DNA from: an uncultured Methanosarcinales archaeon | Lineage (GTDB): Archaea; Nanobdellota; Nanobdellia; Woesearchaeales; JACPBV01 | Direction of reading: 5' to 3' | Length of the DNA stretch: 32,000 bases | NCBI GenBank assembly: GCA_964609455.1 | Contig: CAZSRD010000009.1 | Span: 1-32,000 of the forward strand | Shown here: piece after piece, positions 15,233-30,008 of the stretch | How positions within the stretch are numbered: the stretch's first letter is position 1 | Layout of the letters: each line of letters begins with the position of its first letter | Program-made: the position numbers and the translations under genes | Notes under the pieces: model-generated | The model's input: the letters and a program-made list of their open reading frames with translations, nothing else | Databases searched by the model: none | Told to the model about the DNA's origin: nothing

Positions 15233-15234
15233 TT

Positions 15235-15378
15235 CTAAGAGGCTTCTAGTTCGTTCCATCTAAACTCTCTTAACTTAACGCCCCTTTTTCTTAGGTGGGT
15301 TGTAATCTCTTTGGTAAGTTCCTGCATATTTTCTGATTCTAATAGGTAAGCTAATTCTTCCAGCTCTTCAATATTCAT
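15235..15378 (-). CDS. 47-aa acidic helical micro-protein, unknown function
   Basis: My preferred start is ATG 15378 (MNIEELEELAYLLESENMQELTKEITTHLRKRGVKLREFRWNELEAS). It forms an ATGA overlap with the stop of the upstream small membrane ORF. The longer track version would overlap that ORF in another frame. Confidence 0.4.
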   Translation of the reverse strand: MNIEELEELAYLLESENMQELTKEITTHLRKRGVKLREFRWNELEAS

Positions 15379-15614
15379 TTTTCTTTCTCCCCTGATGTTT
15401 TTCCAAACAAAATACCTGCCAAAACATTTAAAGCCCAAGCTTGAAAAACATTAATCCTTAATGCTGGAAAATTTTTGAATACAAAGTTCCATAACCACAT
15501 TACTGGGAAAGCCAAGATTAAGCCGACTAATGCAGATAACAAAATGATGAGAAACATAGTGTAGCCCACTTCAAAGATTCTCTTCAACAGTGGTGTATTG
15601 TCTAAAAACCCCAT
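15375..15614 (-). CDS. 79-aa two-TM micro-membrane protein, unknown function
   Basis: My preferred start is ATG 15614 (MGFLDN...), preceded by ttGAGG. The two hydrophobic helices are YTMFLIILLSALVGLILAFPVMWLW and VFQAWALNVLAGILFG. A TATA-like tttataaa on the minus strand lies about 32 nt upstream. Confidence 0.45.
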   Translation of the reverse strand: MGFLDNTPLLKRIFEVGYTMFLIILLSALVGLILAFPVMWLWNFVFKNFPALRINVFQAWALNVLAGILFGKTSGEKEK

Positions 15615-15714
15615 CCTCAATAATCTGGTAATGTTTTTTAATTTATAAAGTTTATTGAAAATAATTATTTTCAAAACCAATATTTTTTAAAGGAGAATAT
15701 ATTAACTTTTTATT

Positions 15715-16104
15715 ATGAAGCATATAACCCAGCATAGGGTAAGGTATTCAGATACAGATCATTTTGGGGTAGTTTACTATGCTAGATACTTAGATTGGTT
15801 TGAAGCTGGTAGAACAGAGATATTAAGGGTAAATGGGATAACCTATTCTGAGCTAGAGACAAAAGGCATGTTTGCCCCTGTTGTTGAAGTTAAGGTAACT
15901 TATAAGAAACCAGCGAGATATGACGATATTGTTGAATTGGAGACAACTATAAATAGTATAGGGAATTCGAGTGTAAAGTTTAGCTATAAAGCATATAATC
16001 AGAAGAAGGAATTGTTGTTGGAGGCATATACGGTTAATGTTTTTATTAACAAAGAGATGAAGCCTGTAAGGGTTCCTGATGAAATTAGAAAGGTTTTAGA
16101 GTGA
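15715..16104 (+). CDS. Acyl-CoA thioesterase, 4HBT/YbgC hotdog family
   Basis: The 129-aa protein begins HRVRYSDTDHFGVVYYARYLDWFEAGRTE, the YbgC-type catalytic Asp motif. TTTTTAAA lies about 27 nt upstream of the ATG. Confidence 0.8.
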   Translation: MKHITQHRVRYSDTDHFGVVYYARYLDWFEAGRTEILRVNGITYSELETKGMFAPVVEVKVTYKKPARYDDIVELETTINSIGNSSVKFSYKAYNQKKELLLEAYTVNVFINKEMKPVRVPDEIRKVLE

Positions 16105-16761
16105 ATTTATTATAATATCTCCTTCCCTAACTTGGATTTTGTTTCCGTTTTTATCTTTTAAAATCAAAAAACAATCTTTGTCAATATCATAGGCTATACC
16201 TTTATAGGCCCCGTTTAGTGTTTTGACTTTAACTTGAGAGCCTAAGAAAGAGTTCCTTTTCCAATCACGGATTATTTTAGATTGTTTGCTTTTTAGGTAA
16301 GATTCAAAATTTTTTAATAACACTTTAATTACTTTTTCATTGTTTATCCCTTTCTTTTTTATATATTTTAATGAAATAGCTTTGTTTTTTAATGAAAATG
16401 GTATTTCATTATTGGTGTTTATGCCAATACCAACTATTGCTTTTTTTTCTTTAAGTTCTGTTAATATCCCACATACTTTCTTTTTTCCATAGATTAAGTC
16501 GTTTGGCCATTTAATCCTTATTTTTTTTATATTCAGCGCTTTTTTAGCAGAGAGAGCTGCTATGAATGTATAAAATTGAGGTTTTGTTGTTTTGGGTAAA
16601 ACCAAGGATAAATAGATTCCTCCTTTTGAAGATTTCCAATTGCGTTTGAACCTGCCTTTACCTTTAATTTGTTCATCAGCTATAATCACAGAATTAATCC
16701 CAAAGAATTTAGCTTTAGTGTTAGTAGAGTTTAATCTCTTAAAATGATATATTTTAAACAT
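16096..16761 (-). CDS. birA: Biotin-[acyl-CoA carboxylase] ligase, group I (no HTH domain)
   Basis: QIKGKGRFKRNWKSSKGGIYLSLVL matches the GRGRxxRxWxSxxG biotin-binding loop, and KWPNDL is present. There is a small C-terminal SH3-like domain. The start overlaps the accC stop by 8 nt. The 3' end overlaps the convergent thioesterase gene by 9 nt. Confidence 0.85.
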   Translation of the reverse strand: MFKIYHFKRLNSTNTKAKFFGINSVIIADEQIKGKGRFKRNWKSSKGGIYLSLVLPKTTKPQFYTFIAALSAKKALNIKKIRIKWPNDLIYGKKKVCGILTELKEKKAIVGIGINTNNEIPFSLKNKAISLKYIKKKGINNEKVIKVLLKNFESYLKSKQSKIIRDWKRNSFLGSQVKVKTLNGAYKGIAYDIDKDCFLILKDKNGNKIQVREGDIIINSL

Positions 16762-18637
16762 TTTCTTCAGAATTCATTTGTTCCTGTCTAGCAGATGTTA
16801 CCCATGCAGATTGTTTTTTTTCTATCTTACCTTTGTCAAGGTATTGTGAAACTGCAGTTGTAACAATCAATATTTTTTCCTTTTTTGTCAATCCATTTTT
16901 CTTTACTTTTTTTGTTTTTAGTTGGCCTAATATATTGTTTTTTTCAATGAAGTTGGTTGTGGTATCCCCTTTTGCAAATGCTTTGTTGCTCAATACAACT
17001 TTGTGGAATGGTATTGTTGTTTCTACCCCTTCTATGATGAATTCTTCAAGGGCCCTTTTCATTCTTGAAATGGCCTCACTTCTGTTAGAGCCCCTACACA
17101 TTAGCTTGGCAATTAAGGAATCATAATGCGGGCTTACTACATGTCCTGCATGGCAAGAGCTACAAACTCTGATACCTGGGCCTCCCGGGGGCAGATAATT
17201 TATTATTGTTCCTGTAGTGGGGCAGAAGTCCTCTGCCGGGCATTCTGCATTTATTCTACATTCAATAGCTGCGCTATCAATCTTTATATCTTCCTGCTTA
17301 TATGCTAATTTTGCTCCTGCAGCTATTTTAATTTGCTCTTTTATTAAATCAACACCAGTAACCATTTCGGTTATTCCATGTTCAACCTGGATTCTTGTAT
17401 TCATCTCCATAAAATAGAAGTTTCTGTTTTTGTCTAATAAAAATTCTACAGTTCCAGCACCTATATATTTAACTGCATTAACAATCTTAATTGCTGCTTC
17501 ACCCATTCTCCGCCTTAACTCTTTATCTACTGCTGGAGAGGGGGCCTCTTCTATTAGTTTTTGATGTCTTCTTTGAATGCTACATTCTCTTTCCCCTAAG
17601 TGGATAGCATTACCAAACTTATCTGCCAATACTTGGAATTCTATGTGGCGCGGAGCTTCCATATATTTTTCCATATATAGCGAATCATCACCAAAAGAGG
17701 ATTGTGCCTCTGCTTGCGCGCTCTTAAAGGCTTTTGAAATCTCCTTTTCATTTTCTATAACTCTCATTCCTTTTCCACCACCACCAGAAACAGCTTTTAC
17801 AATCACAGGATACCCTATTTCTTTTGCGGACTTTATGGCGTCCTTTATGTTCTTTAGTGATTTTGTTCCAATAATCAAAGGTATTCGCAAGCGCTTGATG
17901 GTTTGCCTTGCTTTGTCTTTATTTCCCATTAGAGTAATAGATTTTGCTGAAGGACCAATAAACTTAATATTCTTTTTTTCACATAATCTTGCAAAATCAC
18001 TATTTTCAGCTAGAAAACCATAACCTGGGTGGATAGCATCAGCTTTTGCTTTTTTTGCTATTTTAATTATCTTTTTATAATCCAAATAACTAGTTGGCTT
18101 ATTCCCTACTGAATAAGATTTGTCTGAAAATTTTACAGCTAAGGTATTTTTATCTTGTTTTGTGTGTATAATGGCTGTTTGTATGTCAAGTTCTCTACAA
18201 GCCCTAACTATCCTTAAGGCAATCTCTCCTCGGTTTGCGATTAAAACTCTTTTAAATAACCTTTCTTTACTTACTTTTGTATACTCTTTTTCTTCTTCAA
18301 TGTTAGTTAGCCCTCTTGCGAGCATATCTAAAAAGGATTTTGACGAGCTATCTTTTATTACTTTATTAATCTGTTTTTCATTTAGGTTGGGAAGTTTTTT
18401 GGCAAGATTTTTTGTTATTAAATCACCAAAACTATTCAAATCTGGATTATGCAATAATTTTTCATCCTTTTCTAATACAACCAAATGAGATTTTATGAGC
18501 CTTTCTATCTCATCATATAAATATGGCATTTTTTCATGCGTTCTTTTGGCTAATTTTTTCATGAAGGCATAGCTTTTTTCTATAGGGCTTAATAGGTTAT
18601 TTAAGATTTTGGCTATCTTTTTCTGATTGCTTTCCAT
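16754..18637 (-). CDS. accC: Biotin carboxylase with an extra N-terminal region of about 125 aa and an extra C-terminal region of about 50 aa
   Basis: The core starts at residue 128 or so (FKRVLIANRGEIALRIVRACRELDI). It includes the ATP-grasp loop KAVSGGGGKGMRV and MEMNTRIQVEHGITE. The protein is 627 aa against about 450 aa for typical AccC. A TATA box lies 27 nt upstream of ATG 18637. Confidence 0.9.
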   Translation of the reverse strand: MESNQKKIAKILNNLLSPIEKSYAFMKKLAKRTHEKMPYLYDEIERLIKSHLVVLEKDEKLLHNPDLNSFGDLITKNLAKKLPNLNEKQINKVIKDSSSKSFLDMLARGLTNIEEEKEYTKVSKERLFKRVLIANRGEIALRIVRACRELDIQTAIIHTKQDKNTLAVKFSDKSYSVGNKPTSYLDYKKIIKIAKKAKADAIHPGYGFLAENSDFARLCEKKNIKFIGPSAKSITLMGNKDKARQTIKRLRIPLIIGTKSLKNIKDAIKSAKEIGYPVIVKAVSGGGGKGMRVIENEKEISKAFKSAQAEAQSSFGDDSLYMEKYMEAPRHIEFQVLADKFGNAIHLGERECSIQRRHQKLIEEAPSPAVDKELRRRMGEAAIKIVNAVKYIGAGTVEFLLDKNRNFYFMEMNTRIQVEHGITEMVTGVDLIKEQIKIAAGAKLAYKQEDIKIDSAAIECRINAECPAEDFCPTTGTIINYLPPGGPGIRVCSSCHAGHVVSPHYDSLIAKLMCRGSNRSEAISRMKRALEEFIIEGVETTIPFHKVVLSNKAFAKGDTTTNFIEKNNILGQLKTKKVKKNGLTKKEKILIVTTAVSQYLDKGKIEKKQSAWVTSARQEQMNSEENV

Positions 18638-18660
18638 ATTGCTTTGTAGTTGTTTTTAGC

Positions 18661-18673
18661 TTTAAAAACCTTA
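18661..18673 (-). promoter_or_regulatory. accC promoter: TAAGG element plus TATA TTTTTAAA (read on the minus strand)
   Basis: The reverse complement of 18661-18675 is cCTAAGGTTTTTAAA. The TATA centre lies 27 nt from ATG 18637. Confidence 0.5.
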
Positions 18674-18693
18674 GGTTTTTGATTGGATAAAAC

Positions 18694-18707
18694 ATAAGCT
18701 TTTTAAA
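18694..18707 (+). promoter_or_regulatory. fabZ-operon promoter: ATAAGC element plus TATA TTTTTAAA
   Basis: cATAAGCTTTTTAAAg lies about 47-56 nt upstream of the fabZ start. The predicted leader contains the SD-like GGGGTG. Confidence 0.45.
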
Positions 18708-18750
18708 GCGTTTTAGCCTTCTAAAGCCAGAACATAGTACAAATTATGGG

Positions 18751-19260
18751 GTGTTAATTATGAAAACAATAGATGAATTAAAGAATGATAAAGGTGAAAT
18801 TGATAGCAATGCTATTAAACAAATAATACCTTATGAAATACCTTTCTTAATGATAGACAGGGTTCTTAGCTTAGATAAAAATAAAGTGGTTGCTATTAAG
18901 AATACATCTGCCAATGAAGAATTCTTCAAAGGCCATTTTGCAGGATTTCCAATAATGCCTGGAGCTTTAATCATAGAGGGCATGGGGCAAGCTGCTACTT
19001 TATTATTGCGGTATAACCTTGAAAATCACTGGGAGAAGGAAGTTTTAGCTTATAAAATAAAAGAAGCAAAGTTTTTAGCACCAACATTTCCAGGTTACCA
19101 GCTTAAATATGAAATTACTATGCTTGGTAAGGACGAAAGGGGAGCTTTAATGAGCGGAAAGGCTATTGTGGATGATAATGTTGTAGCTGAAGCAACTATG
19201 ATGCTTGCTGTTGTGGATAGAAGGGATTTTAGGTCTAAAGCATCCCCTGTTTATAAGTGA
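18751..19260 (+). CDS. fabZ: 3-hydroxyacyl thioester dehydratase, FabZ family hotdog
   Basis: FFKGHFAGFPIMPGALIIEGMGQAA matches the FabZ active-site motif (HFxxxPxMPGxLxxExxxQ). The track start is GTG 18751. ATG 18760 behind GGGGTG is more likely. Confidence 0.85.
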   Translation: MLIMKTIDELKNDKGEIDSNAIKQIIPYEIPFLMIDRVLSLDKNKVVAIKNTSANEEFFKGHFAGFPIMPGALIIEGMGQAATLLLRYNLENHWEKEVLAYKIKEAKFLAPTFPGYQLKYEITMLGKDERGALMSGKAIVDDNVVAEATMMLAVVDRRDFRSKASPVYK

Positions 19261-19266
19261 TTTCTT

Positions 19267-20391
19267 ATGGAAAGATATGTGAAGGGGGTAGGGATGACTA
19301 AGTTTGGGGTAGAGGATAAAACTACACACAGCATGGCTTTTGAAGCTATAAATCTTGCTTTGGATGATTCTAATATGAATATGGGGGATATTGACGCTGT
19401 TGTTGTCAGCACTGTGGATACTAAAATAAATGAGGAGCGGCAGAGGATGTATGGCGTTGTTTTGAGCAGCATGCTGAAAAAACAGATGCCAATAATCAGG
19501 GTGCCTGCTGTTTGCGGTGGAGGAGGAGCTGCTTTTTGGACAGCTTTGAGATTAAAATATAACAATATTCTGGTTTTGGGTGTTGACAAAGTTTTAGCTG
19601 GCCCAACACCAATAATCACAAAGGAAATAATGAATGCAGGTGATAATTTTTGGGAGCAAGAAGAAGGTTTGGTGTTTCCTGCTCAGAATGCTTTGGTTGC
19701 TCAGCAACATATGCTTAAATATGGCACAACACATGATGATTTAGCATTGATTGCATATAAAAATCATCATAATGGCAGCCTAAACCCCAAAGCAAGATTC
19801 TATGGCAAAAAGGTTACTTTAGAGGACATTAAAAAATCACCTATTGTGGCAACACCCTTTAATCTGTATGATTGTAGCATAAGTGTAAATGGGGCTGCTG
19901 CCGTCATTATTTCAAATGAAAAATCAGATATTAAAGTTATAGGATCTGCTTTAGCAACAGATTATTTGGCTCCTTTTGAGAGGAAAGATATGACTGTATG
20001 GAATGGAACAGTGAAAGCAGGAAAAGAAGCATTTAAACAAGCTGGTGTTGAACCAAAAGATATTGATGTAGCTGAGCTTCATGATGCGTTTTCAATTATA
20101 GAGTTAATTGCTTACGAGGATTTGGGATTTTGCAAAAAAGGAGAAGGAAAAGAGCTTATAAGGCAAGGGCATACTACTCTAGATGGGAAAATGCCTGTTA
20201 ACACATCTGGCGGATTGAAGGCAAGGGGGCATCCAATCTCTCCAACAGGAGTTGCTATGATTGTTGAGATTGTAGATCAGTTAAGGAATAGATGCGGGGA
20301 AAGGCAGGTTAAGGATGCTAAATTAGGATTAACACATAATGTTGGTGGAGCAGGAGGAACAACTACTGTTCACATCCTCAGAAAAATATAA
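19267..20391 (+). CDS. Archaeal-type thiolase (SCP-x/acetyl-CoA C-acyltransferase-like), paralog 1
   Basis: The 374-aa protein has the VKGVGMTKFG N-terminus, the nucleophile region VPAVCGGGGAAF, and NTSGGLKARGHPISPTG and HNVGGAGGT near the C-terminus. Confidence 0.85.
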   Translation: MERYVKGVGMTKFGVEDKTTHSMAFEAINLALDDSNMNMGDIDAVVVSTVDTKINEERQRMYGVVLSSMLKKQMPIIRVPAVCGGGGAAFWTALRLKYNNILVLGVDKVLAGPTPIITKEIMNAGDNFWEQEEGLVFPAQNALVAQQHMLKYGTTHDDLALIAYKNHHNGSLNPKARFYGKKVTLEDIKKSPIVATPFNLYDCSISVNGAAAVIISNEKSDIKVIGSALATDYLAPFERKDMTVWNGTVKAGKEAFKQAGVEPKDIDVAELHDAFSIIELIAYEDLGFCKKGEGKELIRQGHTTLDGKMPVNTSGGLKARGHPISPTGVAMIVEIVDQLRNRCGERQVKDAKLGLTHNVGGAGGTTTVHILRKI

Positions 20392-20407
20392 TCTATATTT
20401 TTCTGGG

Positions 20408-20439
20408 ACACAAAAAATTGCAAAGCAATTTTTTCGTGT
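20408..20439 (+). terminator. Strong intra-cluster hairpin (14-bp stem with one bulge) containing a T6 run. It may be a terminator, attenuator or RNA-stability element.
   Basis: acacaaaaaattgc (20408-20421), loop aaa, gcaattttttcgtgt (25-39). It lies 17 nt after the thiolase-1 stop and 32 nt before the next ATG. The function is not established. Confidence 0.35.
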
Positions 20440-20470
20440 ATTTGATAAGATAGCTGCATAAGGTGATTTA

Positions 20471-21601
20471 ATGACAAAAACAATAAGATGGATTTGTGAG
20501 AAATGCGATAAGAAATGGATACATCCAATTGAGAAGTGCTTGTATTGCAGGGGAGAGATTAAAAAGCAGGTAGGAACCAGATTAAAGGTTGTAGGCTATA
20601 CTAAGGTTTATACTCCTTGTCCACCACACCCTATTATCCCTTATAATGTTTTAATCTTAGAGGACGAATATGGCAACAAGATGCCTAAAAAGACAATAAA
20701 GGATTATAATCTTGGTGATGCTTATGAGGATAAGCCAGACGCTTCAGAGAATTCAGTTGCTGTAGTGAAGATAAAGTATGATTTTTATGAAGCTGTTAAG
20801 GGGGCCTTAGAGCTTATAGGGGGTATAGAGGCAGATTCAAACACAAGGGTCTTGATTAAACCTAATATCAGTTTTCCGGGCTATTCTTATATGGGTATTT
20901 GTACTAACCCTAATGTTATTAGTGGGTTAATACAATATTTGTTGGGCAACCGGGTGAAGAAAGAGAATATAACTATAGCAGAGCAAAGCTTTTTTGTTCC
21001 TTTGGAAAAGACAATAGCGAAATCTGGCATAAATAAGGTTATTAAAAGTTTTGGGGTTAAATTTGTGGATATAAGCAAGGCAGAATTTGAAGAGAAGAAA
21101 GAAGGAGAATTTGCTTTTGAAGTGAGTAAGATAGTCAATGATTTTGATTTAATTTTTAATGTGCCTGTTATAAAAACAGATATGCTGCTTGGAATAGACG
21201 GGGCTTTTGAGAATTTAACAAGATTTCTATCTAAGAAAAGTTTTGATGAGTTAGCAAAAGATCCTAAGAAGGCTGTTGCTGCTTTGACACTTTTACCAAA
21301 GGTGTTGCCTAATTTTATTACATTGGGTGATGCTTCTATAGGCATGCAGGGGAATGGGCCTGCTGAATATGGTGAGCCAGGATTTTTTAATTTAATATTT
21401 GCTGCGAGGAACCCTGTTGTTCACGATAAAATCATTCAAGAGGTTTTTTGTTTGAGGAAATTGCCTTATGTTGAGTTAGCAGGCAAATTGGGCATTGGGG
21501 AGCATGATATATCCAAGATAAATGTTATTGGAAATGAACTGGATGCCTTAAGGAGAGATATAAAACAACCGATAGGCTCCAAATTAATAAAAAACCCATA
21601 G
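20471..21601 (+). CDS. Fusion protein: N-terminal DUF35-type zinc ribbon plus OB fold (thiolase scaffold family) joined to a C-terminal DUF362-like domain
   Basis: The N-terminal ribbon is WICEKCDKKW...KCLYCRG (CxxC...CxxC). It is followed by GTRLKVVGYTKVYTP...PYNVLILEDEYGNKM (DUF35 OB-fold pattern). From about residue 120, TRVLIKPNISFP...ICTNPNVISGLIQYL resembles DUF362. The DUF362 assignment is from memory of the family consensus. The SD-like AAGGTGA lies 4 nt before the ATG. Confidence 0.65.
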   Translation: MTKTIRWICEKCDKKWIHPIEKCLYCRGEIKKQVGTRLKVVGYTKVYTPCPPHPIIPYNVLILEDEYGNKMPKKTIKDYNLGDAYEDKPDASENSVAVVKIKYDFYEAVKGALELIGGIEADSNTRVLIKPNISFPGYSYMGICTNPNVISGLIQYLLGNRVKKENITIAEQSFFVPLEKTIAKSGINKVIKSFGVKFVDISKAEFEEKKEGEFAFEVSKIVNDFDLIFNVPVIKTDMLLGIDGAFENLTRFLSKKSFDELAKDPKKAVAALTLLPKVLPNFITLGDASIGMQGNGPAEYGEPGFFNLIFAARNPVVHDKIIQEVFCLRKLPYVELAGKLGIGEHDISKINVIGNELDALRRDIKQPIGSKLIKNP

Positions 21602-21655
21602 GTTTTTTAAGACCTCAAACTTTTTAAAAGTTTTAGCTGATTAAGAAGGATTAAA

Positions 21656-22777
21656 ATGTTTGTAAAAGGAGTTGGCATGACGAAGTTCGGGATTTCTGAT
21701 AAGTTTTCACACCAGTTAGCATATGATGCTTGCCTTGAAGCTTTGGATTGTGCTGATATGAGCTTTAATAAGATAGACGCAATTGTTTGTTCAACCTTAG
21801 AGTGGTTTTTTTCTATAGAAAAACAAAGGCATTTTGCTGGAATGTTGAGCTCTATGTTCAGGACAAACAAGCCTATAATAAGGGTTCCTGCTGGCTGTGC
21901 TGGCGGAGGCCATGCTTTGTGGGTAGCAAATCAATTGGGCTATGATAATGTCCTTGTTGTAGGAGTAGAAAAACTGATGACATGTAAGTCAGAGTCTATT
22001 ACAGACGAATTTATGATGGCGATGGAGTCTAAATGGGAACAGCCAGAAGGGGTAACTGCTCCATCTTCTGCTGCGATAGTGGCAAGAGAGTATCTCAACA
22101 GATTTCCAGATACAACCATGGATGATTTAGCATTGATTGCATATAAAAACCATTCAAATGGATTTTTCAATCCAAAGGCGCGTTTCTATAATAAAAAAGT
22201 TACTTTGGAAGATATTAAGAAATCAAAGATTGCTGCTTCGCCTTTGAGAGTTATGGATTGCAGCATTAGTGTTGACGGGGCTGCCGCTGCTGTGTTGACA
22301 AAGGATAAGTCAGATGTTAAGATAATTGGTTCTAGCCTTTGTACAGACAGATTAGCCCCTTTTGAAAGCAGAGATTTAACAACATGGGAAGCAACATCTG
22401 TTTCTGCAAAAGAGGCTTTTACACAAGCTAAATTAACGCCTAGTGATATTGATTTTGTAGAGATACATGATGCATTCACAATAGTCGAGCTGATGAGTTA
22501 CGAGGATATTGGCTTTGCCAAAAAAGGAGAAGGGGTTAAATTGATAAGGGATGGCGTTGTTAATATTGATGGGAGAATGCCAGTGAATACATCAGGCGGA
22601 TTAAAGTCAAAAGGGCACCCGCCTTCTGCTACTGGGCTTAGCCAGATTTGTGAGATTGTAGAACAAATGAGGGGGGAGGCAGGAGATAGACAAATTAGCA
22701 ATACTAATTTTGCTTTGGCTCATAATGTTGGCGGGGTTGGCGGCACTGTTACCTGCCATATATTGAAGAAAGTTTAA
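21656..22777 (+). CDS. Archaeal-type thiolase, paralog 2
   Basis: The 373-aa protein is collinear with paralog 1: MFVKGVGMTKFG, VPAGCAGGGHALW, NTSGGLKSKGHPPSATG, HNVGGVGGT. Shared stretches include DDLALIAYKNH and NPKARFY.KKVTLEDIKKS. Confidence 0.85.
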   Translation: MFVKGVGMTKFGISDKFSHQLAYDACLEALDCADMSFNKIDAIVCSTLEWFFSIEKQRHFAGMLSSMFRTNKPIIRVPAGCAGGGHALWVANQLGYDNVLVVGVEKLMTCKSESITDEFMMAMESKWEQPEGVTAPSSAAIVAREYLNRFPDTTMDDLALIAYKNHSNGFFNPKARFYNKKVTLEDIKKSKIAASPLRVMDCSISVDGAAAAVLTKDKSDVKIIGSSLCTDRLAPFESRDLTTWEATSVSAKEAFTQAKLTPSDIDFVEIHDAFTIVELMSYEDIGFAKKGEGVKLIRDGVVNIDGRMPVNTSGGLKSKGHPPSATGLSQICEIVEQMRGEAGDRQISNTNFALAHNVGGVGGTVTCHILKKV

Positions 22778-22830
22778 AATTCGTAACAATAATAAACAAA
22801 TATAAAATACCAATAACAAGGTGATTCAGA

Positions 22831-23571
22831 ATGAGCTTAAAAGGAAAAAATGCTTTAATAACCGGTTCAGCTCGTGGACTAGGAAAAGAAATGGCTTTAG
22901 CTCTTGCTAAAGAAGGCTGCAATATAATAATAAATGATATTGAAGTGATGAAGGAAGAAGCACTTAAAACTGTAGCTGAGATTAAGAATTTTGGGGTTAA
23001 ATCTGAGTTTGTTGCTGCTGATGTTTCTAATTTTGAAAGCTGCAAGAAAATGGCTGAAGATATTAAGAAGAAATTCGGCAAGGTGGATATTTTAGTAAAT
23101 AATGCTGGGATTACTAAAGACAGAACTCTTAAGAAGATGACGCCAGAGGAATGGTATCCTGTGATTAATGTTAACTTGAACAGTTTGTATAATGTTACAC
23201 ATAATGTTTTGGAGATGATTCCAGAGGGTGGCAGGATAATAAATATATCTTCTATTGCCGGAATATCAGGCAATTTCGGGCAGACTAATTATGCTTCGAC
23301 TAAAGCTGGAGTGATTGGATTTACAAAGTCATTAGCTAAGGAGGTTGGCAAGATGAAAATAACAGTAAATGCTGTTGCTCCTGGCTTTATAGAATCAGCT
23401 ATGACTGATAAGATACCGATGGAGATGTTATCGCAGATATTACAGTTGATTCCACTTAGAGAGATTGGCCAGCCATTAGATGTGGCTAATGCTGTTAAGT
23501 TCTTGGCGTCTGACGATGCGAAGTATATATCTGGAACGGTAATTAAGGTGGATGGTGGTATTAGCTTCTAA
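22831..23571 (+). CDS. fabG: 3-oxoacyl thioester reductase, classical SDR (FabG-like)
   Basis: Motifs are TGSARGLG (TGxxxGxG), NNAG, and the catalytic SSIAG...YASTKAG (S-Y-K). AAGGTGA lies 6 nt before the ATG. Confidence 0.85.
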   Translation: MSLKGKNALITGSARGLGKEMALALAKEGCNIIINDIEVMKEEALKTVAEIKNFGVKSEFVAADVSNFESCKKMAEDIKKKFGKVDILVNNAGITKDRTLKKMTPEEWYPVINVNLNSLYNVTHNVLEMIPEGGRIINISSIAGISGNFGQTNYASTKAGVIGFTKSLAKEVGKMKITVNAVAPGFIESAMTDKIPMEMLSQILQLIPLREIGQPLDVANAVKFLASDDAKYISGTVIKVDGGISF

Positions 23572-23697
23572 GAGTTCAGGTATTATAGGCCACGAAAAAC
23601 CATTAAATTTAAATACTCCCCTTATTTCTCTAGGCATTAGTATACCGGGAGTACTACTTCTAGTAGGAAATCAGAGTATAACTAACACAAAAGGTGA

Positions 23698-23910
23698 ATG
23701 AGTAAAATGGGATTTGGAGAAGGATTTGGAGATAGAGAGATGCATAAGGCAACTTGTGCAGATTGTGGTAATGAATGTGAGGTTCCTTTTAAACCAACAG
23801 AAGGAAGACCGGTTTATTGCAGGGACTGTTACCAAAAACATAAGAAACCAAGATTTGGCGGTGGCGGAGGAGGCGGTGGCGGAAGAGGCGGAGGAAGACC
23901 TAGATTCTAA
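23698..23910 (+). CDS. Small CxxC-x17-CxxC zinc-ribbon protein with a Gly/Arg (RGG-like) tail
   Basis: The ribbon is HKATCADCGNECEVPFKPTEGRPVYCRDCYQKH. The tail is PRFGGGGGGGGGRGGGRPRF. AAGGTGA directly abuts ATG 23698, so ATG 23707 (spacing 9 nt) is the likelier start. Confidence 0.7.
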   Translation: MSKMGFGEGFGDREMHKATCADCGNECEVPFKPTEGRPVYCRDCYQKHKKPRFGGGGGGGGGRGGGRPRF

Positions 23911-23991
23911 GTTTCCTATTTCTTTTTTATTTTTTTATTTTGAGCAAGATTTATAAAGTAATTCTATACTCTAATTATTGGGGGTTTTATC

Positions 23992-25146
23992 ATGAATTTT
24001 GACTTTACACCAGAACAATTGGCAATAAAGAAGATGATTACACAGTTTGTAGACTCTGAAATAAAGCCATATGCTGCAGATGCTGATCAAAAAGAGATTT
24101 TTCCAGCTGAGCAGATCAAGAAGTTAGCTAGATTGGGGGTTATGGGTATGTCTATACCTAAGAAATATGGTGGAGCAGAGTTAGATAATATTTCTCAGGC
24201 AATAATCATGGAGGAAGTAAGCAGAGGATGCAATGCAACTGCTGTCACAATGGGAGCTCATGCTTCTCTTACATGCCACCCCATTGTTAATTTTGGTACA
24301 GAAGACCAGAAGAAGAGATTCTTGCCAAAATTAGCTTCTGGAGAGTATTTGGGGGCATTTGCACTTACTGAGCCAAATGCAGGCAGCGATGCTGTTAATG
24401 TGCAAACAACTGCTATTAGGGATGGTGACAAGTATATAGTTAATGGCAATAAGATATTCATAACAAATGGTGGAAAGGCTGATTTGATATGCATTGTTAC
24501 AACAACTGATAAAAGCAAGAAGCATAATGGATTAAGCATTTTTGCTTTTGAGCCTAAGAAAACAGAGGGATTTAGTTTAGGAAAAAAAGAGGATAAATTA
24601 GGGTTAAGGGGCTCAAATACACAAGAATTAGTCTTCAGGGACATGAGGCTTCCTAAGGATAATTTAATTGGCGGAGTTGAAGGAGAAGGTTTTAAGATTG
24701 CAATGAGTGTTTTCAATTCTGGAAGAATTGGCATAGGGATGCAAGGTGTGGGAATTGCGCAGGCTGCTTTTGATGAATGTTTGAAATATGTACAAGAAAG
24801 AGAACAGTTTGGAAGAAAGCTGCATAAGTTTCAGGCTTTACAATTTATGCTTGCTGATATGGCAACTAAGATAGAGGCCGCTAGGCTGTTGTGTTACAAG
24901 GCTGCTGATATTAAGGATAAAGGAAAGAGATATGTAAAAGCAGCTGCTATGGCCAAGTTATATGGTTCGGATGTGGCTATGGAAGTTACTAGAGCCGCTA
25001 TACAGATCCATGGTGGTTATGGCTATATGAAAGATTATCCTTTAGAAAGATTTTACAGGGATGCTAAGATTACAGAGATTTATGAAGGAACTTCTGAAAT
25101 TCAAAGATTGGTTATTGCAGCTGAATTATTAGGGAGAGGTTTCTAA
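23992..25146 (+). CDS. Short/medium-chain acyl-CoA dehydrogenase (butyryl-CoA dehydrogenase-like)
   Basis: The 384-aa protein has [12 protein letters not shown], a C-terminal [13 protein letters not shown] (the catalytic Glu position of Bcd/SCAD/MCAD), and IHGGYGY. Confidence 0.9.
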
Positions 25147-25147
25147 G

Positions 25148-25942
25148 ATGAACATTATTGTATGCATAAAGCAAGTACCTGATACAAATGAAGTTAAGAT
25201 AGACCAAAAAACAGGAACGTTGATTAGGGAAGGGGTTCCAACTATTATGAATCCTGATGATAAGCATGCTTTAATAGAAGCTATTAAGATAAAGAATAAA
25301 CATAAAGGGAAAGTCACTGTTATATCAATGGGGCCACCACAGGCTGAAGAAGCTTTGCGTGAATCGCTTGCTTTTGGAGCTGATGAAGCAATTTTACTTT
25401 GTGATAGGGCTTTTGCTGGTTCGGATACATGGGCAACTGCAAATGCAATAGGTGCTGCGATAAAACATATTGGCAATTATGACTTATTGTTGTTTGGAAG
25501 GCAGGCAATAGACGGGGATACTGCCCAAGTTGGACCTCAAGTTGCAGAATTTTTAAGCCTTCCACAAATTACCTATGCTCAGAAAATTGAGTTAGGTGAA
25601 GGAAAGGTTAAGGTAGAGAGGCAGATGGAAGAAGGCTACGAAGTTATAGAGGCTGCTCTCCCTTGTTTAATCACATGTGTTTCTGAGATTAATGAAATAG
25701 GATATCCTAGCCTACATGGCATAAAAGAAGCTTATAGAGAGAAAGAAGTTAGGGTATTGAGCGCAGAAGAAATTGAGGTAGACAAATATAAGATAGGATT
25801 ATTGAGTTCTCCTACATCTGTCAAGAAGTCATTTACTCCTCCAGCAAAGGGGCAGGGGCAGATTTTAAAAGGTTCTACCAAAGAAGTTGTCGAGAAGCTT
25901 GTTTCAATATTAAAAGAAAAGGAGATAATAGGTGCTTTTTAA
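25148..25942 (+). CDS. etfB: Electron transfer flavoprotein beta subunit
   Basis: It begins MNIIVCIKQVPDT and is 264 aa. It starts 2 nt after the ACAD stop. Confidence 0.9.
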   Translation: MNIIVCIKQVPDTNEVKIDQKTGTLIREGVPTIMNPDDKHALIEAIKIKNKHKGKVTVISMGPPQAEEALRESLAFGADEAILLCDRAFAGSDTWATANAIGAAIKHIGNYDLLLFGRQAIDGDTAQVGPQVAEFLSLPQITYAQKIELGEGKVKVERQMEEGYEVIEAALPCLITCVSEINEIGYPSLHGIKEAYREKEVRVLSAEEIEVDKYKIGLLSSPTSVKKSFTPPAKGQGQILKGSTKEVVEKLVSILKEKEIIGAF

Positions 25943-27105
25943 TGGTGAAAGTAAAAGTAGCTATGCAATGCCCGGAAACACAGCTTAATCTAGGCGGGAT
26001 TGTATTAATCAGGGGAAATGATTTTGAAGATGTACCGAATATGCCTGAAGTTCAGCAGGCTATAGATAATGGTTATCTAGAAGTTTTGAAAGAAGAAAAG
26101 AATCTTGAAAAAAAGGAAAAGAAAGAGGGCGAGGAAGTTTTGGTTTTTGCAGAGCAAAGGCATAATAAAATATCAAGGGTAGTTTTTGAATTATTAGGCA
26201 AGGCAAGGGAGTTAGCAGATAAATTAAATGTCAAAACAGCAGCTATTTTATTGACGGATAAGGATTCTGGTTTATCCCAGGATCTGATAAACTATGGAGC
26301 TGATAAGGTTTATTTGGCAGAGTCACCCATATTAAAAAATTATCAAACTGATTTTTATACTAAGGTTGTATCTGAACATATCCGGAAAACAAAACCCCAG
26401 GTTGCCATATATGGGGCAACACATATTGGAAGAGATTTAGCACCAAGAATTGCCCAGAGGATTAATACTGGTTTAACTGCTGATTGTACTGGTTTAGATA
26501 TTACAGAAGACGGATTATTATTACAGACAAGGCCTGCTTTTGGAGGCAATTTAATGGCTCAGATAATATGCAAGAAGCATAGGCCGCAGATGTCAACTGC
26601 AAGACCTGGCGTCTTTAAGATGAGAGAGAAGGATGGAAGCAGGAAAGGAGAGATAGTTAAAATTGCTGCAAATGTCTCTGAGAAAGACAGCAAACTAAAG
26701 GTTTTGGAGATAATAAAAGAAGCTAAGAAAAAAGTTAATCTAGAGGAAGCAAAGATAATTGTTTCAGGCGGAAGAGGATTAGGAGAGAAAAAGAACTTTA
26801 GCTTAGTTGAAGATCTTGCACGATTGTTAAAAGCAGAGGTTGGTGCTTCAAGGGCGGCTGTCGATTCTGGATGGATAGCTAAAGACCACCAGGTTGGACA
26901 GACAGGAAAAACAGTGAGGCCTAAGCTTTATATTGCAATAGGAATTTCTGGAGCTATACAGCATAAGGCTGGAATGCAGAATTCTGATATGGTTATAGCA
27001 ATAAACAAGGATTCCAGCGCGCCTATATTTGAAGTAGCTGATTATGGGATTGTAGGTGATTTGTTTAAGGTTGTTCCTGAGCTTATTAACGAGCTGAAAA
27101 AATAA
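25942..27105 (+). CDS. etfA: Electron transfer flavoprotein alpha subunit with an extra N-terminal segment of about 65 aa
   Basis: The ETF-alpha core runs from VLVFAEQRHNKI to the FAD signature PKLYIAIGISGAIQHKAGM...VIAINKD. The start ATG overlaps the etfB stop (TAATG), which supports the long N-terminus. Confidence 0.9.
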   Translation: MVKVKVAMQCPETQLNLGGIVLIRGNDFEDVPNMPEVQQAIDNGYLEVLKEEKNLEKKEKKEGEEVLVFAEQRHNKISRVVFELLGKARELADKLNVKTAAILLTDKDSGLSQDLINYGADKVYLAESPILKNYQTDFYTKVVSEHIRKTKPQVAIYGATHIGRDLAPRIAQRINTGLTADCTGLDITEDGLLLQTRPAFGGNLMAQIICKKHRPQMSTARPGVFKMREKDGSRKGEIVKIAANVSEKDSKLKVLEIIKEAKKKVNLEEAKIIVSGGRGLGEKKNFSLVEDLARLLKAEVGASRAAVDSGWIAKDHQVGQTGKTVRPKLYIAIGISGAIQHKAGMQNSDMVIAINKDSSAPIFEVADYGIVGDLFKVVPELINELKK

Positions 27106-27118
27106 TAAGGTTTATAAT
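27105..27118 (+). promoter_or_regulatory. plsC promoter: ATAAGG element plus TATA TTTATAAT
   Basis: ATAAGGTTTATAAT has its TATA centre about 27 nt upstream of ATG 27142. Confidence 0.5.
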
Positions 27119-27141
27119 AAACTAGCTATTTTTCTAGTGTT

Positions 27142-27792
27142 ATGGTCTACCCAATAGGCAGGCTGGTTATACCTGCTATAATGAAAATATGGCTGAAGAA
27201 AGTAGAAGGAACAGATAATATCCCAAAAAATAAAGCATTTATTGTTTGCCCTAATCATTCTAGTTTTTATGATGATCTTTTGATCCCTTCAATCATTGTT
27301 CCTAGAGTAAACAGGGTATTACATATGTATGTTAACAGGAAGTTTTTCAGGCCTTTTTTATTGAGGCGGTTTTTATATTGGGGCGGCTCAATTCCTGTAG
27401 AGGTTTATGACCACCCTAAAAAGAAGGATGTAAACAAGAATGCTTTTAAGAAAGCTGTGTACTATTTAAAGAAAGGAGATTCTGTTGGTGTGTATCCTGA
27501 AGGACATAGAACTCTTGATGGCGAATTGCAAAGAGCAAAGGTTGGAGCAGCCAGATTAGCTTTAACAGCCAAAGTTCCAGTTTTACCTGTAGGAATAATT
27601 GGCTCAAGGGACGTATTGCCCAAAGGGCAATCATTACCCAGGATAAGGAAGATTGTTAGAGTTATTATTGGGAAGCCATTATATTTTGATAAGTATTATG
27701 GGAAACAGGGTGATAGGAAAGTATTAAATAATGTAACTAGAAAAATAATGAGGGAGATTGGAAAATTAATCGGAAAGAGGTACAAGTACTAA
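27142..27792 (+). CDS. plsC: Glycerolipid acyltransferase, PlsC/LPLAT family, paralog 1
   Basis: Motifs are NHSSFYD (HX4D), YPEGHRT, and an N-terminal hydrophobic segment. Confidence 0.8.
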   Translation: MVYPIGRLVIPAIMKIWLKKVEGTDNIPKNKAFIVCPNHSSFYDDLLIPSIIVPRVNRVLHMYVNRKFFRPFLLRRFLYWGGSIPVEVYDHPKKKDVNKNAFKKAVYYLKKGDSVGVYPEGHRTLDGELQRAKVGAARLALTAKVPVLPVGIIGSRDVLPKGQSLPRIRKIVRVIIGKPLYFDKYYGKQGDRKVLNNVTRKIMREIGKLIGKRYKY

Positions 27793-27793
27793 A

Positions 27794-28426
27794 ATGGTGC
27801 ATGCTATTGAGAAGTTGACAATTATACCCATTATAAAGTTGTGGGTAAAGAAAATAAACGGATTAGAGGATATACCTAAGGACAGAAACTTTATACTATC
27901 TGCAAACCACTCAAGTTATATGGACCACCTTATCCTTTCTTCGATAATAATAACCAAACTAAACAAAAGAGTTTATTACCTTGCGAAGAAAGAACATTTT
28001 GAAACTCCTTTTCAGAAGAGGTGGCACGAACATGTTGGTGCTATACCTATTGACAGGCAGGCAGGCGGAAAAGAAGCATTGAAAACAGCAATAAAATATC
28101 TAAAAAGTAATAAGATAATAGGGGTTTATCCAGAGGGGACAAGAACACTAACAGGAAATCTCCAAAGAGGAAAGACAGGCGCAGCGAGATTAGCTTTAGC
28201 AGCCAAGGTTCCTGTACTGCCTGTAGGCTTAATTGGAACTTTTGAGGTGCTGCCTAAAGGAAAGAATATTCCTAGATTTAAGAGGGTTGTTGTTAATATT
28301 GGGAAGCTGATGTATTTTGATAAGTATTATGGGATGGAAAATGATAAAAAGACATTGAGATTAGTTACCACTAAGGTAATGAAAGAGATTGCTAAATTAA
28401 CAGGCAAGGAGTATAATTTTGATTAA
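27794..28426 (+). CDS. plsC: Glycerolipid acyltransferase, PlsC/LPLAT family, paralog 2
   Basis: Motifs are NHSSYMD and YPEGTRT. It is collinear with paralog 1 (GAARLAL.AKVPVLPVG.IG, YFDKYYG). It starts 1 nt after the paralog 1 stop. Confidence 0.8.
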   Translation: MVHAIEKLTIIPIIKLWVKKINGLEDIPKDRNFILSANHSSYMDHLILSSIIITKLNKRVYYLAKKEHFETPFQKRWHEHVGAIPIDRQAGGKEALKTAIKYLKSNKIIGVYPEGTRTLTGNLQRGKTGAARLALAAKVPVLPVGLIGTFEVLPKGKNIPRFKRVVVNIGKLMYFDKYYGMENDKKTLRLVTTKVMKEIAKLTGKEYNFD

Positions 28427-29402
28427 GATGAAAATCGCTGTAATAGGTGCAGGCGGATGGGGAACAACTTTGGCTAATTTACTAGCTTGTAAGGGGTATA
28501 AGGTTAAGTTGTGGGCTTTTGAAAAAGAGGTAGTTGATGACATTAACAATAAAAAAGAAAATACAAGATTTCTAAGGGGCGTTAATTTGTCTGAAAATCT
28601 AGAATCAACTAATAATCTGAAAGGAGCTATTGTTGGGGCAGAAATTATAATCACTGCAATACCTTCTTCATTTCTAAGGGATATGGCAAAGAAGATTTCA
28701 GAATTTATAGATAAAGATACAATTGTTATTTCTGTGACAAAAGGATTAGAGGATATAACATTTAAAAGAATGTCTGAAATCTTAGAGGAAGAATTGAAAG
28801 TTAAGGTTGTTGCTTTGTCAGGACCAAATCATGCTGAAGAGGTTAGCAGAAAGATTCCTACAGCCACTGTGATAGCATCTAAACATTTAGATGTACTGCC
28901 AAAGGTTAAAGATGTTTTGGAAACAGAGTATTTTAAGGTTTATCCTCATGATGATATTATAGGGGTAGAAGTTTGCGGAGCAATAAAGAACATAACTGCT
29001 ATTGCAGTAGGTGTTTGTGATGGTTTGAAGCTAGGGGATAATGCAAAGGCTTCTATTATAACATTTGGGTTGATGGAGATGAGCAGAGTAGGCAGATTTT
29101 TTGGTGCAAAAAGATCCACTTTTTATGGTTTAGCAGGGGTTGGCGATTTAGTAGCTACATGCACATCTAAACATTCCAGAAACAGGTTTGTTGGAGAGAG
29201 AATTGCAGAAGGAAAGAGTTTTGATGATATAAAAAAAGAGATGCATGGCATGGTAGCTGAGGGCATAAAAACGACAAAAGCAGTTTATGATTTGGCCAAG
29301 GAAAAGAACATAGATTTACCTCTTACAAAACAAGTGTATAAGGTCTTGTATGAAAAGAAAGAATTAAAAAAAGCAATAAAAGATTTGATAACCTTAATAT
29401 GA
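28419..29402 (+). CDS. gpsA: NAD(P)H-dependent sn-glycerol-3-phosphate dehydrogenase
   Basis: MKIAVIGAGGWGTTLA is a Rossmann motif. The GpsA family core includes SGPNHAEEV and GAIKN. The likely start is ATG 28428, just after the plsC stop. The track start, TTG 28419, overlaps the plsC stop. Confidence 0.85.
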   Translation: MIKMKIAVIGAGGWGTTLANLLACKGYKVKLWAFEKEVVDDINNKKENTRFLRGVNLSENLESTNNLKGAIVGAEIIITAIPSSFLRDMAKKISEFIDKDTIVISVTKGLEDITFKRMSEILEEELKVKVVALSGPNHAEEVSRKIPTATVIASKHLDVLPKVKDVLETEYFKVYPHDDIIGVEVCGAIKNITAIAVGVCDGLKLGDNAKASIITFGLMEMSRVGRFFGAKRSTFYGLAGVGDLVATCTSKHSRNRFVGERIAEGKSFDDIKKEMHGMVAEGIKTTKAVYDLAKEKNIDLPLTKQVYKVLYEKKELKKAIKDLITLI

Positions 29403-30008
29403 TTATTCCTCTGTGAAGTCATCTACTGTTTCTTTAAAGTCACTGTCGTTTTTGATTATTCCTCTTAACTTTAAGTATTCTCTTGCAAGAATATAAAAGA
29501 ACAATCCTAGACTTTTCTTTCCTTTATTATTACAAGGGACGACCAGATCTAGGTTATTTGATTGATTGTTTGTATCACATAATGCAATTACAGGTATACC
29601 AATCTTGTTAGCATCTAAGATAGCGTTTCTATCTGGCCAAGAGTCTGTTGATAGGATAACTTTTGATTCATAATATATTTCCAAAGCAGGGTTAGTTAAC
29701 ATGCCTGGAGGGTATCTTCCAGCTACAAATTTGATACCAGTTACTCTTCCAAATGTCTTTACTGCTTTCCATCCATTCTCCCTTCTACTTACGATTAAAA
29801 TGTCTTCTGGATCATATTGAGCTATAAAATTAGCTGCTGTTTTTATTCTCTCATCTATTTTTTGTAGATTCAATATACTTAATCCATCTGTCCTTGTTTT
29901 GTAGATAAATTGTTCCATATACTTTGTTTTGAATTTCGTTCCTATATGGATGCCTGATTTTAGGTATTGATCTTGCGAAACTAAAAATTTCGGATTTTCT
30001 TCTGCCAT
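29403..30008 (-). CDS. rps2: Ribosomal protein uS2 (archaeal/eukaryotic SA type)
   Basis: LKSGIHIGTKFKTKYMEQFIYKTRTDGLSILNLQKIDERI and IPVIALCDTN are present. GGAG lies 9 nt before the ATG. Its stop codon directly abuts the convergent gpsA stop (29402/29403). Confidence 0.9.
   Translation of the reverse strand: MAEENPKFLVSQDQYLKSGIHIGTKFKTKYMEQFIYKTRTDGLSILNLQKIDERIKTAANFIAQYDPEDILIVSRRENGWKAVKTFGRVTGIKFVAGRYPPGMLTNPALEIYYESKVILSTDSWPDRNAILDANKIGIPVIALCDTNNQSNNLDLVVPCNNKGKKSLGLFFYILAREYLKLRGIIKNDSDFKETVDDFTEE

Follow-up and report, generated by a model that had tools for sequence, protein, structure and literature searches.

A conserved operon of two PlsC-like acyltransferase paralogues and a bacterial-type glycerol-3-phosphate dehydrogenase in Woesearchaeales as a probable phosphatidic acid module

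The DNA analysed here, a stretch of 32,000 nucleotides from contig CAZSRD010000009.1 (assembly GCA_964609455.1; in the following termed the window), carries three collinear genes coding for two PlsC-like acyltransferases, PlsC1 and PlsC2, and for the sn-glycerol-3-phosphate (G3P) dehydrogenase GpsA. To judge from sequence, these genes form a translationally coupled operon that is conserved throughout Woesearchaeales, and it is very probable that this operon encodes a phosphatidic acid (PA) module of bacterial type. In the proposed route, GpsA would convert dihydroxyacetone phosphate (DHAP) to sn-G3P, PlsC1 would acylate G3P to lyso-PA, standing in for PlsB or PlsX/PlsY, and PlsC2, as a minimal peripheral lysophosphatidate acyltransferase (LPAAT), would acylate the lysophosphatidate. 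Acyl-CoA would be supplied by the adjoining genes for thiolases, short-chain dehydrogenase/reductase (SDR), FabZ and the acyl-CoA dehydrogenase (ACAD) with its electron transfer flavoprotein (ETF). The steps differ in how firmly they can be assigned: the LPAAT role of PlsC2 is likely, acyl-CoA as the acyl donor is reasonably probable, and the role of PlsC1 as a glycerol-3-phosphate acyltransferase (GPAT) is tentative. For the reading as a whole, i.e., a leaderless, coupled PlsC1-PlsC2-GpsA operon forming bacterial-type PA with PlsC1 performing the other acylation, we regard the chances as evenly balanced.

A preliminary description of this DNA had noted two collinear genes of the LPLAT family 1 nt apart, with the motifs NHSSFYD and YPEGHRT in the upstream and NHSSYMD and YPEGTRT in the downstream gene, as well as a GpsA start codon 1 nt past the second stop codon; all of these features were recovered (Table 1). 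In the window, the PlsC1 stop codon and the PlsC2 ATG are 1 nt apart, and the PlsC2 stop codon TAA (28424-28426) is followed, after 1 nt, by the GpsA ATG at 28428. An alternative GpsA start codon, TTG, is located at 28419, and both starts are used in public gene calls.

For comparison with related loci, the GTDB species-representative genomes were scanned with a PlsC2 profile, which gave 128 relatives; the best 80 loci, reaching 10 kb to each side and amounting to 1.18 Mb in all, were kept. A same-strand tandem of PlsC-like genes was present in 76 of the 80 species-level loci, and cluster counts revealed GpsA in 73/80 and a convergent uS2 gene in 68/80. Of 74 loci, 49 had a PlsC1-PlsC2 gap of exactly 1 nt, and in 68 this gap did not exceed 5 nt or was an overlap; PlsC2 and GpsA were separated by at most 20 nt in 51/71 loci. 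The gene directly 5' of the tandem pair was most often RadA (37 loci), followed by ETF-alpha (16 loci) and an SDR gene (9 loci).

The letters at 27105-27118 are ATAAGGTTTATAAT, which the preliminary description had taken for an ATAAGG-TATA promoter. In the window, the TTTATAA heptamer begins 31 nt ahead of the PlsC1 ATG. Of 75 orthologous loci, 63 have a TATA-like heptamer with its first base between -32 and -29 (at -30 in 43 of them), compared with 6.4% in shuffled upstream regions, and the promoter call is therefore supported far above chance. The position of the TATA box implies a leaderless mRNA beginning at the PlsC1 ATG, and the predicted transcription unit conforms to the archaeal leaderless type, with the B recognition element (BRE) and TATA box approximately 26-30 nt 5' of the start codon and with short or overlapping gene gaps. 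In the 12 loci without the heptamer, PlsC1 mostly abuts an upstream ETF-alpha or SDR gene, and the acyltransferases therefore join the upstream operon there; ETF-alpha runs straight into PlsC1 in six loci. In loci with RadA directly 5' of the pair (e.g., L006:1185-1211, L013 and L020), a second conserved element, approximately ATTTAATAGTTCT, was observed past the TATA box and ahead of the ATG; loci of the window type share CTATTTTTCTA instead (window 27126-27136). These elements could represent an operator or an initiator region.

Table 1. Position and assignment of the operon, its promoter and adjoining features in the window.
Feature	Position	Strand	Basis or remark
BRE-like ATAAGG (purine-rich) and TATA box TTTATAAT, archaeal promoter	27105-27118	+	sequence reading, orthologous loci
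PlsC1, predicted divergent LPLAT/PlsC-family acyltransferase, 216 aa	27142-27792	+	PF01553, residue census
PlsC2, predicted LPAAT-type acyltransferase, canonical but N-terminally minimal, 210 aa	27794-28426	+	PF01553, residue census
GpsA, predicted bacterial-type NAD(P)H-dependent sn-G3P dehydrogenase, 324 aa from ATG	28428-29402	+	NF000942, Pfam
uS2, convergent gene	29403-30008	-	stop abuts GpsA stop
Fatty-acid-type gene set free of acyl carrier protein (ACP); context, outside the operon	13293-27105	mixed	Pfam matches

GpsA matched the NCBIfam model NF000942 with 403.9 bits (cut-off 257), and both the N- and the C-terminal Pfam domains of glycerol-3-phosphate dehydrogenases were detected. Among PDB entries, 1Z82 aligned over the full length (E 3e-74), followed by 3K96 (4e-70) and 1TXG (1.6e-41), the last of which we take to be the Archaeoglobus enzyme. 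The motifs GxGxWGT, GPNHAEEV, K187-N188, GDL (D240) and SRNR (250-253) showed little or no variation among 74 orthologues. With a score above the cut-off, a dinucleotide fold and the Lys-Asn, Asp and Arg motifs in place, the protein has the predicted make-up of an NAD(P)H-dependent G3P dehydrogenase. Its assignment as the DHAP reductase, which is a prediction, is made because of this family membership and the invariant catalytic motifs; members of the GpsA family run in the biosynthetic direction. The previously proposed G3P rather than sn-glycerol-1-phosphate (G1P) backbone is in keeping with a bacterial-type GpsA, but it depends on GpsA throughout, since PlsC from E. coli and from B. subtilis takes lyso-PA of either stereoform (PMC13400652). 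It would be GpsA, and not the acyltransferases, that determines the chirality of the backbone.

Concerning the acyltransferases, PlsC1 and PlsC2 are 48% identical to each other and matched PF01553 with 79.1 and 103 bits, respectively (cut-off 23 bits), placing both, by profile and HX4D dyad, in the predicted LPLAT/PlsC-like superfamily. The LPAAT model TIGR00530 gave 100.1 bits for PlsC2 and 58.7 bits for PlsC1, both below its cut-off of 102.95. The sole PDB sequence match of either paralogue was Thermotoga maritima PlsC (TmPlsC; 5KYM; E 2e-18 for PlsC2), with the alignment opening at Tm residue 66 versus query residue 21. AlphaFold2 (AF2) models with pLDDT values of 88.9 (PlsC1) and 79.8 (PlsC2) showed, for both proteins, one short N-terminal helix (residues 4-15) ahead of the alpha/beta core. 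A Foldseek search with either model returned 5KYM first, and then squash GPAT, human GPAT1 and PatA. A distinction of the paralogues by fold was rejected, since both models match TmPlsC first and GPATs second; the slightly better GPAT fold scores of PlsC1 were dropped as evidence, as they track its higher pLDDT.

No hydrophobic segment of transmembrane (TM) grade was detected in PlsC1 or PlsC2, the maximum 19-residue Kyte-Doolittle value being 1.4-1.6 and internal, compared with 2.4 at the N-terminus for the TM helix of E. coli PlsC. Likewise, alignment, AF2 models and hydropathy revealed neither the two-helix motif of TmPlsC nor an E. coli-type N-terminal TM helix in either paralogue. With pI values of 10.3 (PlsC1) and 10.0 (PlsC2), both look like minimal, peripheral enzymes. 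An E. coli PlsB query produced marginal matches only, to PlsC-like open reading frames (ORFs; E 2e-3), and a PlsY query none, so that the two proteins appear, by sequence, to lie outside the known GPAT families (PlsB, PlsY and the plant/chlamydial soluble GPAT). As a side observation, a third PF01553 acyltransferase is encoded just 3' of GpsA in one related locus (L011:12391-13032, minus strand), with FPEGVPN replacing EGTR and the motif II Arg absent.

To compare the active sites, a residue census of 77 PlsC1 and 77 PlsC2 orthologues was performed in TmPlsC numbering (Table 2). In TmPlsC, H84 and D89 serve catalysis and K105 and R159 bind the phosphate of lysophosphatidate (LPA), and mutation of the conserved motif II Arg strongly inhibits LPAAT-alpha (PMC6688108). 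The PlsC2 motifs NHxSYMDH, K65 (equivalent to K105), IPIDR (D87-R88) and PEGTRS were near-invariant, and the protein has the motif II Arg, EGTR, the motif IV Pro and the K105-equivalent Lys expected of a putative LPAAT. This function is assigned, as a prediction, because all TmPlsC residues for catalysis and LPA phosphate binding are kept.

Table 2. Residue state at TmPlsC positions in 77 PlsC2 and 77 PlsC1 orthologues.
Position	PlsC2	PlsC1
H84	77/77	76/77
D89 (D or E)	77/77	76/77
K105 position	K 76/77	N 65/77, K 7/77
Motif II Arg	R 76/77	no conserved Arg
Thr of EGTR	T 76/77	variable (T, H, G, R, K)
R159 (motif III)	R 76/77	R 74/77
Motif IV Pro	77/77 (P143)	76/77

The PlsC1 of the window has kept HX4D, EGxR and the motif IV Pro; it carries Asn65 at the equivalent of TmPlsC K105, lacks the motif II Arg and contains a Lys/Asn-rich insertion at residues ~87-98. 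In its orthologues, this insertion comprises 6-10 residues with conserved Lys residues and an almost invariant Asn, and at motif II two alignments were tried, giving either V in 52/77 or R in 14/77. The derived PlsC1 signature was found in 68 of 75 full-length upstream copies, the window's included, while E. coli PlsC and two bacterial relatives have the PlsC2-type residue state. PlsC1 thus lacks two residues expected of an LPAAT, the motif II Arg and the K105-equivalent Lys; as predicted from the dyad, it is catalytically intact with a different acceptor site. The known GPATs PlsB, plant ATS1 and GPAT1 rely on the motif II Arg. Loss of this residue as a mark of a GPAT was consequently rejected, PlsB-type and plant GPATs using it as well; judged by these residues, the losses in PlsC1 show an altered acceptor site, not GPAT identity.

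PlsC1 evolves faster than PlsC2, as evident from mean pairwise distances of 0.53 and 0.40, respectively, and bacterial outgroups are nearer to PlsC2 than to PlsC1. A full neighbour-joining (NJ) tree resolved two clades. In a bootstrapped NJ subset, which addresses the placement relative to bacterial PlsC that had been suggested earlier, exclusion of the bacterial outgroups (69/100) and PlsC2 monophyly (70/100) were recovered, but PlsC1 monophyly was not (11/100). It is unsupported because seven loci (L011, L017, L026, L029, L063, L064 and L065) have upstream copies of canonical type, with the K105-equivalent Lys, IPIDR and no insertion, that branch basally. Being only 40-53% identical to their own downstream partners, these seven copies are old and not recent duplicates, and the lineages in question thus hold two canonical PlsC-type genes plus GpsA. 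A clean tree of one duplication and two clades was rejected on the PlsC1 bootstrap value, and we propose an old duplication with probable later remodelling in most lineages. As for the earlier suggestion that the duplication had split the roles, it is partly supported in that the duplication is ancient, about 76 loci keep both copies and the divergence of the acceptor site is asymmetric; the identification of either copy as a GPAT did not follow. The strong asymmetric divergence in acceptor-site residues would fit a division of labour.

The window and the related loci were split into stop-to-stop segments, and all of those with 40 aa or more were searched by phmmer with E. coli PlsB, PlsX, PlsY, AcpP, FabD and CdsA. 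In these neighbourhoods, no homologue of PlsX, PlsY, ACP or FabD was detected, and none of PlsB beyond marginal PlsC-like matches, in line with the previous statement that PlsB, PlsX and PlsY are missing alongside the operon; CdsA was matched only in one atypical locus (L072; see below). Fatty-acid-type genes (thiolases, DUF362, SDR, FabZ, ACAD, ETF and acetyl-CoA carboxylase (ACC)) were located within 10 kb of the operon in 46 of the 51 loci whose flanks reached 8 kb or more. The reported placement of the acyltransferase pair and GpsA near an ACP-free cycle is thereby extended to linkage with CoA-type fatty-acid genes across these loci. Acyl-CoA is favoured as the donor because the neighbours are of CoA type and neither ACP, FabD nor PlsX is encoded nearby.

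Operon logic, the asymmetry of the paralogues and the lack of another GPAT nearby are the reasons for assigning G3P acylation, tentatively, to PlsC1, for which it is the most economical role. Precedents for the module are mycobacterial PlsM, a PlsC-type enzyme lacking a TM domain that uses acyl-CoA to acylate G3P as well as LPA (PMC10593935), and a PlsC2-type gene in L072 that adjoins a CDP-alcohol phosphatidyltransferase gene, with CdsA nearby (see below). Several points weigh against this assignment or against the reading as a whole. The loss of the motif II Arg is no GPAT signature and could equally reflect an acceptor without a phosphomonoester. Seven lineages keep a canonical upstream copy, and the derived PlsC1 site is therefore dispensable for the role of the upstream gene. 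The absence of PlsY and PlsB holds for the neighbourhoods, with 10 kb flanks, and not for the whole genome; a single, partial PlsY-like protein from a Woesearchaeota metagenome-assembled genome (MAG) appears in a published list (Coleman 2019, PMC6431249, supplementary table 5). Neither CdsA nor a head-group enzyme was found in the Woesearchaeal loci, and according to a published view most DPANN archaea scavenge their lipids (PMC11868695). That Woesearchaeales make diacyl-sn-G3P phospholipids de novo without ACP, PlsB or PlsX/PlsY, with the remodelled PlsC1 and its Lys/Asn loop as a new type of acyl-CoA:G3P acyltransferase, is a possibility to which we give somewhat less than tentative credence.

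Alternatively, both paralogues could be second-step or remodelling acyltransferases, acting on lysophosphatidate or lysophospholipids and differing in chain or acceptor, with PlsY or another enzyme encoded elsewhere performing the first step. This would agree with TIGR00530 and TmPlsC giving the best scores for both proteins, with the two fully canonical copies of the seven lineages and the partial PlsY-like protein mentioned above, and with the several PlsC paralogues often held by bacteria, such as the seven PlsC homologues in M. tuberculosis (PMC10593935). We nevertheless consider it unlikely, as 1.18 Mb of conserved neighbourhoods are devoid of PlsY, PlsX and PlsB, the tight coupling to GpsA speaks for the use of free G3P by the operon, and the loss of two of the three LPA-phosphate residues of TmPlsC (PMC6688108) makes a conventional LPAAT role of PlsC1 improbable.

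The same residue losses in PlsC1 (K105 equivalent and motif II Arg), together with the variable Thr of EGTR, would also be explained if PlsC2 alone catalysed both acylations of G3P and PlsC1 had shifted to an acceptor without a free phosphomonoester, e.g., a host-scavenged lyso-phospholipid or lyso-glycolipid, diacylglycerol or an ether-linked glycerolipid. A precedent is mycobacterial PlsM, a single PlsC-type enzyme taking both G3P and LPA, and DPANN archaea are thought to import and modify host lipids. Such a shift is rather improbable in our estimation: the motif III Arg, which binds phosphate in TmPlsC, is kept in 74/77 PlsC1 sequences, the conserved Lys gained in the insertion could rebuild a phosphate site, and the 1-nt coupling of PlsC1 and PlsC2 suggests equal protein amounts within one pathway. 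That coupling and the faster evolution of PlsC1 would likewise be compatible with PlsC1 and PlsC2 forming an obligate heterodimer, PlsC1 serving chiefly as scaffold or regulatory subunit, or with a module for glycerol-phosphate catabolism or storage lipids instead of membranes. Retention of the catalytic His and Asp/Glu (76/77 each) argues for an active PlsC1, no GlpK, GlpD, wax-synthase or diacylglycerol acyltransferase (DGAT) homologues were found in the loci, and the GpsA family is biosynthetic in direction, so that we judge these options very improbable.

The host of the window is most likely a DPANN archaeon of the Woesearchaeales. The window encodes uS2, RadA and RadB of archaeal/eukaryal type, and among named homologues, those nearest to PlsC1 and PlsC2 belong to Candidatus Woesearchaeota or Nanoarchaeia MAGs. 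The contig is also contained in the ENA assembly ERZ27248937, with 44 kb, and in a Logan assembly; no names were found on the public copies of PlsC1, PlsC2 and GpsA. Nearly all of the 80 related loci are titled Woesearchaeota or Nanoarchaeota. Some titles are implausible, yet the archaeal neighbours are the same: 'uncultured Methanosarcinales', 'Nomurabacteria bacterium' and 'Thermoplasmata' clash with a synteny of Woesearchaeal type and with archaeal uS2 and RadA (e.g., L004, L005 and L054). In L072, a locus whose title reads 'Oligoflexia bacterium', the gene directly behind a PlsC2-type gene codes for a CDP-alcohol phosphatidyltransferase, and a CdsA gene is 7 kb away (2179-3033, 9926-10600 and 10759-11364). 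The nearest relatives of this homologue are Woesearchaeal proteins, which points to a transfer out of archaea or to a binning error; L072 was rejected as a bacterial donor for that reason, and no donor was identified. Finally, GpsA and uS2 are separated by an inserted dxr, a gene of the methylerythritol phosphate (MEP) isoprenoid pathway, in L004 (2152-3288) and two other loci, which fits the MEP genes published as lying near the G3P dehydrogenase gene in some Woesearchaeota.

Upstream of the operon, the window contains the fatty-acid-type gene set listed in Table 1. By Pfam matches, its first part codes for a carboxyltransferase, the biotin carboxyl carrier protein (BCCP), a 4HBT thioesterase, BirA, biotin carboxylase and a FabZ-like dehydratase, and the remainder for two SCP-x-type thiolases, a DUF362 protein, a FabG-like SDR, an acyl-CoA dehydrogenase and ETF beta/alpha. 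Since a complete acetyl-CoA carboxylase set (carboxyltransferase, BCCP and biotin carboxylase), with BirA and the thioesterase (13293-18637), adjoins the thiolase, SDR, FabZ and ACAD-ETF genes, the direction of the cluster is suggested to be synthetic and fed by malonyl-CoA rather than beta-oxidation. DUF35 proteins act as a scaffold for archaeal thiolases. By analogy, a scaffold role may apply to the 376-aa protein encoded between both thiolase genes (20471-21601, plus strand), which combines an N-terminal CxxC...CxxC zinc ribbon with the DUF362 domain and whose family is kept in 26 related loci.

Further observations in the window concern unannotated N-terminal extensions of biotin carboxylase (16754-18637, minus strand; ~127 aa before the first Pfam domain) and of ETF-alpha (25942-27105, plus strand; ~65 aa), and a 70-aa zinc-finger ORF (Pfam zf_Tbcl_2, public gene call) between the SDR and acyl-CoA dehydrogenase genes (~23698-23910, plus strand). 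At 207-7906 (plus strand), two very large putative surface proteins of 1611 and 955 aa are encoded, with Ig-like, fibronectin-III, Cys-rich and thrombospondin-type-3 repeats and a C-terminal TM segment.

Archaea are partly defined by ether-linked isoprenoid lipids on G1P. Stray bacterial lipid genes in uncultured archaea feed the debate on the 'lipid divide' and the question of DPANN membranes, which are usually assumed to be scavenged. In Woesearchaeales, the lipid genes constitute one deeply conserved, promoter-equipped operon instead of being scattered; this operon is in physical linkage with a set of ACP-free fatty-acid genes and contains a paralogue pair with a clear, testable asymmetry of acceptor residues. 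If the de novo route to diacyl-sn-G3P lipids held true, a whole archaeal order would come to stand on the bacterial side of the lipid divide. The three small, soluble-to-peripheral proteins (210-324 aa) are directly assayable as to whether an archaeon makes bacterial PA itself and whether an enzyme of PlsC type is able to take the place of PlsB or PlsY.

Parts of this inventory have been reported. GpsA, PlsC and PlsY were described in MG-II/III, Asgard and DPANN archaea, with GpsA in Woesearchaeota and PlsC in DPANN, and for archaeon GW2011_AR11, PlsC (KHO52716.1) and GpsA (KHO52717.1) carry consecutive accessions (Coleman 2019, PMC6431249). Bacterial fatty-acid genes, including the G3P dehydrogenase gene near MEP-pathway genes (Castelle 2021, PMC8204110), and genes for FabG, FabI, FabZ and cyclopropane-fatty-acid synthase (Zhang 2024, PMC10936187) were found in Woesearchaeota. 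These reports concern the same genes in the same lineage, but they are confined to the occurrence and the phylogeny of these genes. Full-text searches turned up no paper describing the tandem paralogues, the residue asymmetry, the conserved leaderless operon or the ACP-free linkage. We conclude that the presence of GpsA, PlsC and fatty-acid genes in Woesearchaeota is already known and that, as far as the papers found go, the conserved operon and the asymmetry of the paralogues are new.

Compared with characterised systems, GpsA has all NAD(P)H-binding and substrate-binding motifs in common with bacterial GpsA (1Z82 and 3K96) and is closer to the bacterial structure 1Z82 than to 1TXG, but here it is encoded by an archaeon, in one operon with acyltransferases. 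Both paralogues share the fold and the PF01553 family with TmPlsC and E. coli PlsC, 5KYM being the best match in sequence and structure. PlsC2 has HX4D, K105, the motif II DR, EGTR and the motif IV Pro in common with TmPlsC, whereas PlsC1 is without K105 and the motif II Arg. Identity to these bacterial enzymes is only ~24-27%, and the archaeal pair is ~35-45 residues shorter N-terminally; where TmPlsC has its two-helix membrane motif and the E. coli enzyme its TM helix, the pair has a single short helix. Mycobacterial PlsM, a PlsC-type enzyme without TM domain, acylates G3P and LPA from acyl-CoA in an organism whose fatty-acid synthesis yields acyl-CoA (PMC10593935). Together with PlsB2, it likewise represents a pair of LPLAT-superfamily acyltransferases that leads from acyl-CoA to phosphatidic acid without PlsX/PlsY. 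However, the partner of PlsM is of PlsB type and not a second PlsC paralogue, and the mycobacterial genes lie outside any tandem gpsA operon, whereas the archaeal genes stand in tandem with GpsA; the activities of PlsM and PlsB2 have been measured, while the archaeal pair is known here from its sequence.

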